From an uncultured archaeon (GTDB lineage: Archaea > Asgardarchaeota > Heimdallarchaeia > Heimdallarchaeales > Kariarchaeaceae), in the NCBI GenBank assembly GCA_964645535.1, contig CAZYCQ010000086.1, positions 1-10,019 of the forward strand: a stretch of 10,019 nt of DNA, written 5' to 3'. Shown piece after piece: positions 2,567 to 8,097 of this stretch. The position numbers and the translations under genes were made by a program. The notes under the pieces are model-generated. The model did no database searches, had not been told where the DNA came from, and saw only the letters and a program-made list of their open reading frames with translations. The first letter of the stretch is position 1, and each line of letters opens with the position of its first letter.

Positions 2567-3835
2567 GTGTTTTTGATGGACGTCCCCACCATTTCGGGAA
2601 ACTATCGAGGGTTTGCATTCTTCAGATCAGGGGAACACACCCCCTTAGTTGAAAAGGCCCTTGCATTTTGGCAGCGGTTTGCGAAACAGCATGATCAAGC
2701 GGAACGGATTGGAAAACGCCTTTTGGGTTCAATCACAACTACCGAAAGGGACGAAATTGTAAGGGAGATGGAACAGTATTATGCACCACCCCCACCACGG
2801 AATTTGGAGCGAATCAATTTCGAATACCTACGGACATGCTTTGGTCAAGGACAATTGACGTGGCGAAGGGTTCATCCCAAGGTCATCCAATTGGAAGTTA
2901 TTTTTGACACAAGGCTTTCATTGAGTGTGAATCCATTTTTTCGATTTTTCAAGCAATTCAAAGGATTTTGCGGCATTCTTGATGAATTCTGGATGCATTA
3001 CAATGCGAACGGCACGATTGGTTCGGGAATCAATGCAGTCCCCCCAGGAGTTCGAGAAATGGAAAGTACCGCGATTGAATGGATGGAATCCATTGATTAC
3101 AACGATACGGTATTGGAAGATGTGTTTCTACTTCTTTTGGACCGTTACACCAAGACGAGAGCTTTTAAACGGAAGGAAACATTTTTCGAGAGAGTGGTCG
3201 GGGGCATCTATCTCTCGAAGGAGATCCGTCGTCGTGCATTGAAGCAGATCACAAAATTGGATCAACTCATTCTCTTGAGGCACAGGCATCCGGACATGCA
3301 GGAGGAAATCGATCGGCAGATCCGTAGTTTGGAGGAATTCATAGCTTCAACAGAATCTCATAGGGAACATATGCTCACCCGGTTAGATCTTCTTGATAGA
3401 GCAACAGTTGAATCGACAATCAGGGAAAGATATACCCATCTTGAAGAGAAACTGATCCGAAAGCTTGCAAAAATGATTATTCGTGTCCGGAAGAATACGT
3501 TTTCATCGCGGGCGAAAGCTCCGGAGGGGCATGTGGGAGTGGTCTGCACATCGGTGTTGGACGGGAACCGGTACATCATCCGAGTGCTTCCCGGCCAGCC
3601 CCCATTCAGAGAATTGCTGGTGAGGTGCGACAAGGAGATCAGGTTCATTCATCCGATAGGTTCATTGTTCGTGGTATGGCTCCCACGAGTTGTGACAGGA
3701 GACGAAAAATACTATAGATCATACAATAATGTCGCCTTGCACATTGAGTTTCCGACACTTCTTGTGGAACCCGAAGGAGAGAGAGACGAGGAAGATGAAG
3801 AAGAAGTAATTGAAGAATACCAAATATCACAATGA
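2567..3835 (+). CDS. Hypothetical multidomain protein with acidic C-terminal tail
   Basis: 422-aa ORF filling the gap between recognised genes. The start is either GTG 2567 or ATG 2576, with purine-rich GGGGGAG at 2553-2559. No confidently recognised family. The middle is helical, the C-terminal domain is beta-rich, and the tail is EGERDEEDEEEVIEE. Confidence 0.8.
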   Translation: MFLMDVPTISGNYRGFAFFRSGEHTPLVEKALAFWQRFAKQHDQAERIGKRLLGSITTTERDEIVREMEQYYAPPPPRNLERINFEYLRTCFGQGQLTWRRVHPKVIQLEVIFDTRLSLSVNPFFRFFKQFKGFCGILDEFWMHYNANGTIGSGINAVPPGVREMESTAIEWMESIDYNDTVLEDVFLLLLDRYTKTRAFKRKETFFERVVGGIYLSKEIRRRALKQITKLDQLILLRHRHPDMQEEIDRQIRSLEEFIASTESHREHMLTRLDLLDRATVESTIRERYTHLEEKLIRKLAKMIIRVRKNTFSSRAKAPEGHVGVVCTSVLDGNRYIIRVLPGQPPFRELLVRCDKEIRFIHPIGSLFVVWLPRVVTGDEKYYRSYNNVALHIEFPTLLVEPEGERDEEDEEEVIEEYQISQ

Positions 3836-3915: not shown

Positions 3916-4524
3916 ATGGATAATGGAAAGATGCCGGGAGATGGGTTGAAAATCTATGGTGAAGCCAAGCTCCCATCCCGTTTTGGCAATTTCAAGATTT
4001 ACAGTTTCAAGGGTACGCCAGACGGGAAGGATCACATTGCTGTTGTTGCGGGAGATGTTCAAGGTAAGGAGGACGTTCTGACTCGAGTGCATTCGGAATG
4101 CCTGACCGGCGATGTTTTTGGAAGTTTGCGATGTGATTGTCGGGAACAGCTGGAATTGGCACTTGATCGGCTCAGGCAGGAAGGAGAAGGAGTCATCATT
4201 TATCACCGGCAGGAAGGCAGAGGGATTGGATTGGCCAATAAGATCAAGGCCTATGAATTGCAAGATCAGGGATACAATACCATCGAGGCGAATGAGAAGC
4301 TGGGGTTCAAGGCGGATCAGAGGGATTATGCGGTAGTTCCTTTAATTCTGGAGGCATTGGGGGTCAAATCCATCAGATTGATGACCAACAATCCCGCCAA
4401 GCTCAGTGCTCTTCGTAGATTGGGAGTGAAGATCACCGGAAGGGTTGACCATCATGTGGACCCCAACGAATACAATGAGTTTTATTTAGAGACGAAGCGG
4501 GTAAAGATGGGGCATTGGCTTTAA
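3916..4524 (+). CDS. ribA: GTP cyclohydrolase II (stand-alone, riboflavin biosynthesis)
   Basis: Signature 'RVHSECLTGDVFGSLRCDCREQL' with three Zn-binding Cys, plus 'QEGRGIGLANKIKAYELQDQG', 'LMTNNPAK' and C-terminal 'YLETKRVKMGH'. An alternative start is ATG 3931. Confidence 0.96.
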   Translation: MDNGKMPGDGLKIYGEAKLPSRFGNFKIYSFKGTPDGKDHIAVVAGDVQGKEDVLTRVHSECLTGDVFGSLRCDCREQLELALDRLRQEGEGVIIYHRQEGRGIGLANKIKAYELQDQGYNTIEANEKLGFKADQRDYAVVPLILEALGVKSIRLMTNNPAKLSALRRLGVKITGRVDHHVDPNEYNEFYLETKRVKMGHWL

Positions 4525-6122
4525 TCAAGTGGATATATTTTGGTGATGGTACCGATTCCTTTGGTTCGTCCTTCCCTGAAGATGAATCGTTGGCCAACGG
4601 AGATGTATTCCGGCCGGTAGAGGAACTTGAAGGAAACTTGTGCCCGGTCACCAGTTCTGAGGAGGGGTTGGGAGATTTCCATGATACGGGCACTTTGTTG
4701 GACGGACTGGGTATGGATGACGGGAGTGTAGCCAGGTTTGATGGTAGTGCTGTGATACAAAATGAAGACTTCTCCATCAAATCTAAAGCTTGCGCCAGGG
4801 GATTCCCTAGCAGACAGAAGAACCATACCCTTTCTCACTTCATCTTTTTTCACGGTATGCAGTGCAAATGTTGCATCCTGTCCTGCAACGGCTCGATCCG
4901 TGATCACTCGTTTGTAATGGATGGATTTGATTCGAACCAATTTGAATTTTCCGCCTTCGAATGGTCCGAGATATACATTATCGTTTGCATTGATGACTCC
5001 CGAATAGATTCTTGCGGACACCACGGTACCGACACCGGGTACAGAAAAGGTTTCTGTGATGTAAGCACCAAACTCTTTTGACTGGAGTTCATTTGCAGGT
5101 TTTTTGGCAGGGAGGAGGTTGAGGAATCTTTTGAAGAGGTCAAGGTTCTCACCGGTTGAGGCGGAGATGAGAAAGATCGGGATGATATTGCCATGGGAGA
5201 TGTTCTGTGCAGCGAGAAGGACATCGTTTTGATTCTTGACGATCAGCGGAACCTTTGAGACGCCTGGAAGTTTGAGGAGTTTTTTCAGATCGTCCTTGGT
5301 TTTTGAAAGGACTGTATCCGGGGTCATATCGATCTTGGTAATGACGACGAATGTGGGGAGCTTCAGGGCGATGATCAATCCAAGGTGTTCCTTTGTCATT
5401 TTGAGGATGCCTTGATTGGCTGCGACAATGAGCATGGCATAACGTGCGCCGAGTCCTGCAAGCCCATAGATGGTCGTTTTGAGGTATTTCTCATGGCCCG
5501 CCAAGTCATGGAAGGAAATGGTCTTGATTGATCGTTCAAGGATCTGAAGATCGGTAGGAGGGTGCACTGGATCCTGGTTGACTATATTCCCATCAACATC
5601 GATACCGATGGTAGTTGAGCTGATGGATGAGGTTCGACCTGTTTCCAGTTCATGTTTGTGTCTAAACACTGCAGTTCGTGCACTTCCCCTACCGTCATCA
5701 AGATGACCGGTTTTGAGCACGCCGATAAGAGTGGATTTGCCTGCATCAACGTTACCGAGGGATACCACGGGGATGTCAACAGGAAGTCGTTCAGGGTCTT
5801 TGACTTTACGTACCAGAACTTCAGTTACCAATCGACCTTCATTTTCAGTTTGACGGAGAACAGTGGTCTTGGCATTGATCATCTTTGCAATTTCCCCCAA
5901 CTGTTCCAAAGTTGCTTTCATCTCTTCTGGAGTAATTCCTTCCGGTCTGCCATCATCAGTGATGCCAAGAATGTAGATAGCCTCCCCATTTCCTTCAAAG
6001 AGGCGGAACTTCATTTGCGACGCCAATTCATTCATTCTTTTTGCATCTGCCGAGATCTTGAGTTTGTATTCGACATTGCCATACTCCCGTTCCGGGATAC
6101 CTGCGTAGGGAACCTCCGCCAT
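4521..6122 (-). CDS. GTPBP1/GTPBP2-like translational GTPase (EF-Tu/eEF1A superfamily)
   Basis: G1 GNVDAGKST, family-specific 'LDDGRGSARTAVFRHKHELETGRTSSIS', G3 'DLAGHEKYLKTT', G4 TKID, G5 ISA, then beta-barrel domains II/III ending 'FREGRTKGIG'. The start is moved from the ORF-track value (6191) to ATG 6122 (MAEVP..., 533 aa). This removes the overlap with the HAD gene and puts a TATA-like box about 25 nt upstream. Confidence 0.95.
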   Translation of the reverse strand: MAEVPYAGIPEREYGNVEYKLKISADAKRMNELASQMKFRLFEGNGEAIYILGITDDGRPEGITPEEMKATLEQLGEIAKMINAKTTVLRQTENEGRLVTEVLVRKVKDPERLPVDIPVVSLGNVDAGKSTLIGVLKTGHLDDGRGSARTAVFRHKHELETGRTSSISSTTIGIDVDGNIVNQDPVHPPTDLQILERSIKTISFHDLAGHEKYLKTTIYGLAGLGARYAMLIVAANQGILKMTKEHLGLIIALKLPTFVVITKIDMTPDTVLSKTKDDLKKLLKLPGVSKVPLIVKNQNDVLLAAQNISHGNIIPIFLISASTGENLDLFKRFLNLLPAKKPANELQSKEFGAYITETFSVPGVGTVVSARIYSGVINANDNVYLGPFEGGKFKLVRIKSIHYKRVITDRAVAGQDATFALHTVKKDEVRKGMVLLSARESPGASFRFDGEVFILYHSTTIKPGYTPVIHTQSVQQSARIMEISQPLLRTGDRAQVSFKFLYRPEYISVGQRFIFREGRTKGIGTITKIYPLD

Positions 6123-6184: not shown

Positions 6185-6805
6185 ATGGCAAGGCCGAAAA
6201 TCATCCTTTTTGATTTGGATGGGACGTTGGTGGATACAAAGGAGATTGTGGCAGAGATCTATGCAGAAGGGCTTAGAAAAATGGGACTTTCTCCACCTTC
6301 CCTCTCAAAGATCATGGCTCTTTCAGGCCTTTCCACATTTGAAACCGGAAGGCATCTGGGAGTTCCCGAGAATCGACTGGATGAGATTGACCGATGGTTT
6401 TGGGATCAATTCCGGAAATTCTGTGAAGATCCATCAGAAGTCCCCTACGTTTTCACAGAGGTTCCATCCCTTCTTGAGTTTTTGACAGGTCTAGGAATTG
6501 ATCTTGGAATCGTGACATCAAATGACAGTATGAATGCACGGCTTTTGATGCGAAAGGCGAAGTTGGAGAGATATTTTTCCGCAATCATTGGATTCAGGGA
6601 GGTGACCAATCCCAAGCCCTCAGGAGAACCAATCAGGATTGCTGTTGAGAGAATTAGCAATGGAGTTGGAATGGATTTTTCCAAAGATGTTTGGATGGTG
6701 GGAGACACGGATTCGGATTGGCAGTCTGCTTTGGATGCGGGAGTCAGGCCATTGATATTGAACAGACATCTAAATTCATTGAATGACCTCAAGAAGTTAT
6801 TGTAA
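6185..6805 (+). CDS. HAD-superfamily hydrolase (phosphoglycolate phosphatase/PpaX-like, subfamily IA)
   Basis: Motif I 'FDLDGTLVD', motif II 'IVTSN', motif III 'PKPSGEP' and motif IV 'MVGDTDSD', with a helical C1 cap. The substrate cannot be determined from sequence. Confidence 0.92.
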   Translation: MARPKIILFDLDGTLVDTKEIVAEIYAEGLRKMGLSPPSLSKIMALSGLSTFETGRHLGVPENRLDEIDRWFWDQFRKFCEDPSEVPYVFTEVPSLLEFLTGLGIDLGIVTSNDSMNARLLMRKAKLERYFSAIIGFREVTNPKPSGEPIRIAVERISNGVGMDFSKDVWMVGDTDSDWQSALDAGVRPLILNRHLNSLNDLKKLL

Positions 6806-6830: not shown

Positions 6831-6841
6831 AAAAAAAAAAA
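6831..6841 (-). terminator. Oligo-T (T11) terminator on minus strand
   Basis: An A11 run on the plus strand (6831-6841) reads as U11 on the minus strand, immediately after a 12-bp stem. Confidence 0.65.
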
Positions 6842-6939
6842 GCGTCGCCAAGATGGTGGTTATGTTAGGTTCGAACGGATCCTTGACAACGCCTTCACTT
6901 GCATAGTGAAGTAGATTACTCTACCTCGACAATGCAGTT
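6842..6939 (-). ncRNA. Candidate structured small non-coding RNA (~100 nt), family not recognised
   Basis: It lies between a TATA box (6969-6962) and a T11 tract. Stems: GAGGUAGA-GUAA-UCUACUUC (GNRA loop), CUUCACU-AUGCA-AGUGAAG, and GCGUUGUCAAGG/UCUUGGCGACGC (12 bp, with G-U pairs that form only on the minus strand). The 5' end is estimated from TATA spacing. Confidence 0.6.
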
Positions 6940-6961
6940 AAACTATTGTATTGATTAGCCC

Positions 6962-6977
6962 TATATAAACCCTTTGT
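6962..6977 (-). promoter_or_regulatory. Archaeal TATA box with BRE-like element for the candidate ncRNA
   Basis: The minus strand reads ACAAAGGG-TTTATATA. This is a consensus TTTAWATA box with a purine-rich upstream element, and a pyrimidine-purine step at 6940/6939 at the expected distance. Confidence 0.6.
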
Positions 6978-7154
6978 CAAATCAACCACTTAGAGCTTAT
7001 AGTTAGATTTAGGAATTGACAATCGTGAAGAGGGTTTCGCGAATGCAAACAAACATCTGATCAAAAGAAGATATTTTTGAGAGGATAAACGTTTAGAAGT
7101 TTGGTTATCGATACACCTTATGGTTTAAGTGAAGTCAGACAAAGTTAAAGGAGG

Positions 7155-7162
7155 TTATTTAA
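7155..7162 (+). promoter_or_regulatory. TATA-like box for the bactofilin-like gene
   Basis: TTATTTAA is preceded by purine-rich AAAGGAGG and lies about 27-34 nt upstream of ATG 7189. Confidence 0.45.
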
Positions 7163-7188
7163 GCGAGAAATAAATAGTAGATCAGAGA

Positions 7189-8097
7189 ATGGTTTCACCT
7201 GATAGTTTAGAAAGTCGACTGAGGGCAAAACTTGCGTCCGGAGAAATTTCGGCAGAGGAGTTCGAAGAGTTGTTTGAGAGATTTAAGGAATTGGGGCTAC
7301 TCGAATCCGATGAAAGGAAACTCAATTCATTGATAGTCACTGGAAGGAAGAGCTATGATGAAGATCTTGTTGTTGAAGGGCCAGTCACAGTGGCTGGGAT
7401 ATTGAGGATTTCAGGAGATCTGGAATGTCAGCGGTTGGGGATTGCCGGTTCAGGAAATATAACTGGAGAGGTCAGGGTGAATGGTCGTTGCGCCATCAAC
7501 GGAAAACTTGATGTGGGGAAAGACATCAAGGTCAAGGGAGAGTGCACCATTACCGGGAAATGCTTTGCAAGCAATGCCATGTACTGTATTGATAGATTAA
7601 CCGTGGCAGGCAAATTGATCGCACCTGAAAAGCTAGTTGTAGGAAATCGGTTGAAGATTTTGGGAAAGGTCACGGTGGGATCTGTTGAATGTGCATCATC
7701 TATTTTGGTGCAGGGAAGTCTGAAAAGCGCTGGAAATGTGATTGCTGAGAAATTGGTATCCCCTAGGGGAGGTAATTCATCAATTGGTGGAAATCTCATT
7801 GCAAAGGAGGTTCAGGTCGGCAGGGTTCAAAAAAGCTCGGACGAATTGGGAGAGATTGTGGGGAGGTTGTTGACGTCACTCATTGGTTTGAAAACAGAGA
7901 CAATGTTTTATATCAAGGGATCAATAAAAGCAAAGAAGATACAGGCTAACAACATCCGGATCAATGGTGACATCGTGGCGGATGTAATTCAGTTAGGGGA
8001 CAATGTAGAGGTTAGAGGAAACATCTATTACACCCAATCCATTGAAGCGTCACAACATTTGAAAGAGAAAGCGGAGCGTATTGTTGCAGAAGAATAA
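7189..8097 (+). CDS. Polymer-forming cytoskeletal (bactofilin-like) beta-helix protein with N-terminal SHOCT-like motif
   Basis: There are repeated ~17-18-aa V/I-x-G units (VEGPVTVAGILRISGDLE, ITGEVRVNGRCAINGKLDV, VQGSLKSAGNVIAE, INGDIVADVIQLGDNVEVRGNIYY). The N-terminal 'LRAKLASGEISAEEFEEL' fits the SHOCT pattern GxIs/txEEF. Confidence 0.8.
   Translation: MVSPDSLESRLRAKLASGEISAEEFEELFERFKELGLLESDERKLNSLIVTGRKSYDEDLVVEGPVTVAGILRISGDLECQRLGIAGSGNITGEVRVNGRCAINGKLDVGKDIKVKGECTITGKCFASNAMYCIDRLTVAGKLIAPEKLVVGNRLKILGKVTVGSVECASSILVQGSLKSAGNVIAEKLVSPRGGNSSIGGNLIAKEVQVGRVQKSSDELGEIVGRLLTSLIGLKTETMFYIKGSIKAKKIQANNIRINGDIVADVIQLGDNVEVRGNIYYTQSIEASQHLKEKAERIVAEE

Follow-up and report, generated by a model that had tools for sequence, protein, structure and literature searches.

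Bacterial trans-encoded sRNAs such as MicF, RyhB and those with C/U-rich loops directed against the Shine-Dalgarno (SD) sequence carry a conserved seed for mRNA start regions, end in a terminal stem followed by a U tail and act on several targets. Their seeds are usually 6–12 nt long. In type I toxin-antitoxin systems, the RNA is encoded beside or opposite its target, which is a short membrane peptide. Masking of ribosome-binding sites (RBS) by sRNAs is known from bacteria and methanogens. In Methanosarcina mazei, sRNA162 uses a single-stranded region to pair in trans with a transcription-factor mRNA at its RBS and start, which most likely represses translation (PMC3510493), and sRNA154 and sRNA41, which are intergenic, conserved in their genus, nitrogen-regulated and multi-target, mask ribosome-binding sites with an anti-RBS loop (PMC5867862). 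For Asgard archaea, our literature search, whose coverage was incomplete, found no description of a base-pairing regulatory sRNA with a named target.

We analyzed a 10,019-nt stretch of DNA (the window), which is contig C86 of the 3.6-Mb genome (G000) of an uncultured archaeon of the Heimdallarchaeia. Judging from its sequence, and with a probability of roughly three in four, a minus-strand locus in this window encodes a trans-acting, multi-target antisense sRNA that masks translation starts. Two traits of trans-encoded archaeal sRNAs were found here: an intergenic gene of 50–500 nt with a promoter and a terminator (both as sequence signals only), and an unpaired region that is complementary to an unlinked mRNA at its RBS and start. 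Like sRNA162, the predicted RNA sets an unpaired region against the RBS and start of an mRNA. In sRNA162 this region is a linker between stem-loops and the targets are neighboring genes, whereas here it is the 27-nt loop of a terminal stem, with unlinked targets and a main duplex of 26 bp; no sequence similarity between the two RNAs has been shown. The resemblance to sRNA154 and sRNA41 lies in the intergenic position, conservation within a genus, multiple targets and anti-RBS loop, but the phylum and sequence are different, and the M. mazei RNAs are nitrogen-regulated and tested whereas ours is a prediction. It has in common with MicF and RyhB a conserved start-region seed, a terminal stem then a U tail, and several targets; unlike them, it has a TATA promoter and a far longer seed. 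The RNA recalls type I antitoxins in that a long and nearly perfect duplex spans the SD and start of one main mRNA, which encodes a product with a nuclease-like fold. We rejected that class since the RNA is encoded neither beside nor opposite its target or a small toxic peptide gene, and the target lies on another contig and encodes a 204-aa protein whose family is present in 11/11 other genomes of the archaeal family. The RNA would represent a new family with a mechanism of a known kind and seems to be limited to one genus.

A putative RNA gene with its own promoter and terminator signals

A stand-alone non-coding RNA gene on the minus strand had been proposed in a sequence-only reading of the window. 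The TATA box (6969–6962), the T11 tract (6841–6831) and the minus-strand sequence quoted in that reading could be read off the window exactly as given, and the genes on both sides, for an HAD phosphatase and a bactofilin-like protein, are on the plus strand as it had stated. There are two TTTAWAWA sites in the window, one of which is the TATA box of the RNA gene. The TTTAWAWA box is present in 6/6 lineages that carry the RNA, with 18 nt from the start of the box to a conserved ATACA, and the distance from the TATA box to the 3′ stem is 77–80 nt in five of them. TAAC at the predicted transcription start is kept in 5/6 lineages. T11 is the longest A/T tract in the window, and tracts of at least 11 occur 18 times in the whole 3.6-Mb genome. 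The terminal T tract measures T8–T11 in four lineages, T5 in G001 and T3 in G003. U tracts direct archaeal termination via aCPSF1, Lokiarchaeota orthologues included (PMC8716108). Conservation of promoter spacing, fold and U tract in the six lineages supports the proposed gene, a stand-alone minus-strand non-coding RNA outside any Rfam family.

Table 1. Coordinates of the predicted RNA gene, its parts, neighboring genes and related loci (window positions unless another contig is named)
Feature	Position	Strand	Remarks
RNA gene locus	6831–6977	−	~100 nt, own TATA box and U tract
BRE-like purine run and TATA box	6962–6976	−	TATA box TTTATATA at 6969–6962
Predicted transcription start	6939–6940	−	pyrimidine-purine step ~30 nt past TATA start; placed by archaeal promoter spacing
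5′ hairpin P1	6900–6936	−	basal helix, internal loop, apical GNRA-capped stem 6924–6911
Terminal stem P2, 5′ strand	6881–6892	−	identical in five lineages, one deletion in G003
Antisense element, 27-nt loop	6854–6880	−	enclosed by P2
Terminal stem P2, 3′ strand	6842–6853	−	12 bp, three G-U pairs
U11 terminator tract	6831–6841	−	T11 on minus strand
14-codon ORF opposite RNA	6862–6906	+	by-product of the loop being the complement of SD and AUG; probably not a gene
HAD-family phosphatase gene	6185–6805	+	convergent neighbor; upstream-downstream relation differs in G003
Bactofilin-like gene	7189–8097	+	divergent neighbor; own TATA-like box near 7155–7162
Main target gene	G000:C26:25445		protein P0001, 204 aa; unlinked to RNA gene
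Stand-alone Mrr-like P0001 paralogue	L193:4004–4390; G000:C10	− (L193)	129 aa; kept in genus

Two further observations concern the flanks of the gene. In the G002 lineage, the RNA terminator is followed on the same strand by another GC-rich run with T9 behind it (L293:4620–4660), possibly a backup terminator. Upstream of the promoter are short, partly conserved palindromes at 6973–6981, 7015–7023 and 7036–7043 (two of the form TTG-W-CAA and one TTCGCGAA), which are possible regulator sites; a genome-wide count showed no enrichment of TTG-W-CAA palindromes in intergenic DNA.

Predicted fold of the RNA

The minus strand folds at −36.7 kcal/mol (z −4.79; 0/200 shuffles as good), and the RNA forms two hairpins at a z of about −4 to −5. 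The opposite strand reaches z −1.9 in G000. Of the elements proposed from the letters, the GUAA-capped hairpin was recovered in the fold, as was the 12-bp terminal stem (P2), which has three G-U pairs that fit the minus strand. The third element, a 7-bp hairpin (6911–6893), did not hold up: it can be drawn but is in neither the MFE nor the centroid structure, it is interrupted by a C-A mismatch in the two closest relatives, and the other lineages lack it. At the 5′ end the analysis supports a single long hairpin, P1 (6936–6900), that has the GNRA hairpin at its tip. P1 is variable in sequence while its fold is kept, with a hairpin of −10 to −18 kcal/mol in each lineage. The tip loops are GUAA, GCAA, GAAA and GAAA in four lineages, changes that stay within GNRA, and other loops are found in two. 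P1 probably protects the 5′ end of the RNA. The 27-nt loop of P2 is predicted to be open, with a mean unpaired probability of 0.85–0.94.

In an alignment of the six lineages, 89% of cells were paired vs 25–45% in slid controls. In the comparison of homologues that the sequence-only reading had called for, the fold is conserved in six lineages, and intramolecular covariation was not above shuffles (45–309 of 500; six kin lineages) because P2 hardly varies.

Distribution and relation to known RNA classes

The RNA is present in six lineages of one Heimdallarchaeia genus, comprising G000, three congener genomes and two lineages from metagenome assemblies, all of them kin. The other genomes of the genus (3/3) each carry a single copy, which adjoins the HAD gene in rearranged loci as well. 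P2 and the loop are identical in three lineages, 2–3 nt differ after the paired block in two, and small changes are seen in G003. Outside the genus we detected no homologue by BLAST (101 genomes) or with covariance models (61 and 12 genomes), most of these genomes being incomplete, and none in the bactofilin and target neighborhoods, by pattern searches or via each genome's own target start region. Pattern scans of public collections likewise gave no further RNA gene. An intergenic hairpin in a genome of another genus (G004:C11:12484–12560; L243 minus strand ~1505–1580) starts like the 5′ end of the RNA and continues into ACCACC and T14; with a model E of 0.84 and no TATA at the right spacing, it is a weak lead to a reduced relative.

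The locus had not been recognized as a known RNA in the sequence-only reading; Rfam 15 gave no match there up to E 10, and ARAGORN found no tRNA. A tRNA or tRNA-like RNA was ruled out by the lack of a cloverleaf; a T-loop-like octamer in the loop is closed by a single pair, with no 5-bp T-stem. A Y RNA was ruled out because the 5′ end is a separate hairpin and P2 lacks the bulged-C Ro-binding helix. A search of four genomes that are 82–93% complete found no gene for Ro60 (TROVE, PF05731). C/D guide sRNAs were ruled out as no C and D boxes with a K-turn were seen in the alignment, H/ACA guides as no pocket hairpin is followed by an ACA box 3 nt from the 3′ end, and neither class had an Rfam match. 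A riboswitch or attenuator was rejected since the alternative pairing is not conserved and the downstream gene is convergent in 5/6 lineages. Likenesses to a telomerase template, SRP helix 8 and vault RNA were dropped, as there was no Rfam match and the motifs are explained by the target.

Predicted pairing with the start of the P0001 mRNA

The loop first gave a weak BLAST match elsewhere in G000 that recurred in a congener and is the complement of the SD, AUG and first codons of the gene for P0001. In the predicted duplex, the 3′ part of the loop pairs with the GGUGGU Shine-Dalgarno sequence (6 bp) and, after a 2-nt bulge, the 5′ part pairs with AUG and codons 2–7 (20 bp). The tail of the 16S rRNA in relatives is a standard anti-SD, so GGGUGG is a valid SD. 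At −42.3 kcal/mol, this site, which lies on a start codon, is the best duplex for the loop among 180,762 windows on both strands of the genome, vs −32.2 kcal/mol for the next best. Shuffled loops on 3,777 start regions gave −26.2 ± 2.3 kcal/mol (best, −34.6 kcal/mol), and a Gumbel fit on the real loop gave an E of 0.08 before conservation was counted; the genome-wide target scan covered G000, with rough gene-start calls. Cofolding of the full-length RNA and target gains −25 kcal/mol.

The start region of P0001 is invariant at 25/33 positions in five lineages (9/15 upstream and 16/18 coding), and nine control genes, each compared over four or five of these lineages, have 2–12 of 33 start-region positions invariant. 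Within the paired block, the five synonymous-variable codons are identical without exception, as against 13/83 for invariant residues of the gene body (naive p of ~1e-4, with lineages that are kin). Sequence identity stops where the pairing stops, and the N-terminus of the P0001 family is otherwise unconserved and unalignable. Two lineages found after the target had been predicted both have the invariant loop and the invariant target site. In G003 both loop and site are changed; the loop has lost one base, and the main duplex reaches −24 to −26 kcal/mol, which falls into the range seen by chance. As for compensatory change between RNA and target, the loop is identical in five lineages, and the G003 loop pairs no better than the G000 loop with G003 sites. 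We also noted a small hairpin that abuts or overlaps the P0001 SD in G000 (L039:1480–1500, G000:C26); by eye, the hairpins of congeners differ in sequence.

Further candidate targets

Two small convergent genes on contig C4 have 14-bp matches to the SD half of the loop at their RBS, where the ACAUAACCACC part of the loop is predicted to pair in both. Such a 14-mer is expected 0.0001 times across all start regions. One gene encodes a 60-aa ribbon-helix-helix (RHH) protein (PF01402); for the other, an 85-aa protein, neither Pfam nor the Atlas gave a function. At both sites, matches of 11–15 nt are kept in four lineages while the flanking bases vary. In G002 the RHH start codon has shifted and the motif has stayed in place. 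G003 has a weaker site at the 85-aa gene and none at the RHH gene. Compensation of the changed 85-aa site by the G003 loop deletion was rejected, because the G003 loop pairs no better than that of G000. The 72-aa gene just upstream of P0001, which has an 11–12-bp match in its first codons in 3/5 lineages, is a weaker candidate target.

Two other matches lie apart from these sites. A minus-strand gene that reads like Cdc6/Orc1 (G000:C50:18233) has a 10-bp loop match over its SD (−21.4 kcal/mol, within the chance range). In other genera (L043–L060, L202), several homologues of P0001 and of the RHH gene have GGTGGTTA before the start, with no RNA homologue found there, which hints at an older regulator; GGTGGT precedes 22/2,657 starts in G000.

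Predicted fold of P0001

P0001 has no Pfam or NCBIfam match. Its structural model (pLDDT 88) matches PD-(D/E)xK folds, with AF1548 (Z 10.2, rmsd 2.9, 110 residues), NucS (Z 8.9) and Can2 (Z 8.8) as examples, and suggests a restriction-endonuclease-like fold. A short paralogue of P0001 has a match to Mrr_cat just under the cut-off. In the family alignment a D-x-K motif is common, and H or P stands, by eye, at the position expected for the first catalytic Asp, which makes nuclease activity of P0001 doubtful. The 129-aa Mrr-like paralogue on G000:C10 apparently lacks the classic QxK motif.

Proposed mechanism and alternative explanations

In the mechanism that we favor, the RNA would be transcribed on the minus strand from its own TATA promoter and end in the U tract. 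P1 would stabilize it, and P2 would display the open 27-nt loop, the C-rich end of which probably nucleates on the GGUGGU SD before zipping over the AUG. A 26-bp duplex cannot form in a closed loop; therefore the G-U-rich P2 must presumably open in part, as the cofold shows. Binding of the 30S subunit would be blocked and mRNA decay perhaps triggered, so that the P0001, RHH and 85-aa mRNAs would be silenced through loop pairing at their translation starts. The genome has one Lsm gene, whose product might help the pairing. Transcription, pairing in the cell, and repression rather than stabilization are what we infer from these features. If this is correct, Heimdallarchaeia mask the RBS of Shine-Dalgarno-led mRNAs in the manner of bacteria, with a bearing on post-transcriptional control in relatives of the eukaryotic host lineage, and the RNA would link three uncharacterized genes, a transcription regulator among them, into one regulon. 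With a main target, two co-targets and exact pairing predictions, the proposal can be tested in vitro without culturing the organism.

A positive or guide role after pairing with these mRNAs, in which the RNA would stabilize the message or direct a nuclease through the 20-bp duplex, is unlikely: the SD itself is covered at each of the three main sites, as is classic for repression, and no partner protein gene lies beside the RNA gene. On the other hand, a run of 20 contiguous pairs is long for an sRNA that acts in trans, the target SD is abutted or overlapped by a hairpin, and M. mazei sRNA154 stabilizes some targets and blocks others (PMC5867862). We also consider it improbable that the RNA guides mRNA cleavage together with a protein, or is an unlinked antitoxin that silences P0001 and co-regulated small genes; either would mean that a lineage near the ancestor of eukaryotes has an RNA-guided silencing circuit. 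A reading without RNA pairing starts from the plus strand, which has the same motif as the mRNAs and could, within the HAD 3′ UTR, be a protein decoy, or the motif could be a DNA operator. Promoter spacing, U tract, GNRA loops and G-U pairs all favor the minus strand, although the opposite strand also folds (z −1.4 to −4.5 across lineages). In G003 the HAD gene is located downstream of the RNA and on the same strand, and therefore no HAD 3′ UTR runs over the plus strand. The orthologues in other genera that have GGTGGTTA before the start and no detected RNA homologue would suit a decoy or operator, but an insertion of 2–3 nt between the two blocks of the main site is better suited to an RNA duplex than to a 26-bp operator, as are several differences from the loop complement that are G-U compatible. 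We regard this reading as quite unlikely.

Masking of translation starts by the RNA also has to be weighed against readings in which the match to the mRNA is coding, relic or incidental. Four lineages have an SD, an ATG and a 14-codon frame on the plus strand whose first six residues are common to P0001, as would a micro-gene for a 14-aa peptide; a functionless leftover of an inverted duplication of the P0001 5′ end would account for the origin of the 26-nt match. Both are very unlikely given that the first 11 codons are DNA-identical in five lineages with zero synonymous change, that the G001 frame lacks the early stop and the G003 frame is shifted to 7 codons without an ATG, and that the match to the 85-aa gene is entirely non-coding; moreover, a relic would not remain invariant while neighboring proteins drop to about 50% identity. 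We give very little credence to a structural RNA, whether Y-RNA-like or, through the T-loop-like octamer GUUCGAAC in the loop, tRNA-like, since there is no T-stem, no bulged-C Ro helix and no ARAGORN or Rfam match, and the octamer is fully accounted for as the complement of P0001 codons 3–5. The same holds for a conformational switch: in G000 a pairing between the 5′ arm and the 3′ strand is possible (−12.7 kcal/mol), but it falls to −2.5 to −8 kcal/mol in 4/6 lineages, and the switch was rejected because it is not conserved.

Neighboring genes in the window

A conserved block before the bactofilin-like gene (7115–7165, plus strand) contains a pair of similar T-rich boxes spaced by about 35 nt; in G000 the second is ~26 nt ahead of the ATG and resembles a TATA box for a leaderless mRNA. 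A plus-strand gene at 2567–3835 encodes a 422-aa protein with no Pfam or NCBIfam match; it is syntenic in the genus and divergent from a MoxR-type AAA and VWA (CoxE-like) pair. The minus-strand gene at 4521–6122 encodes a translational GTPase of the EF-Tu superfamily (Pfam), which we take to be GTPBP1-like.
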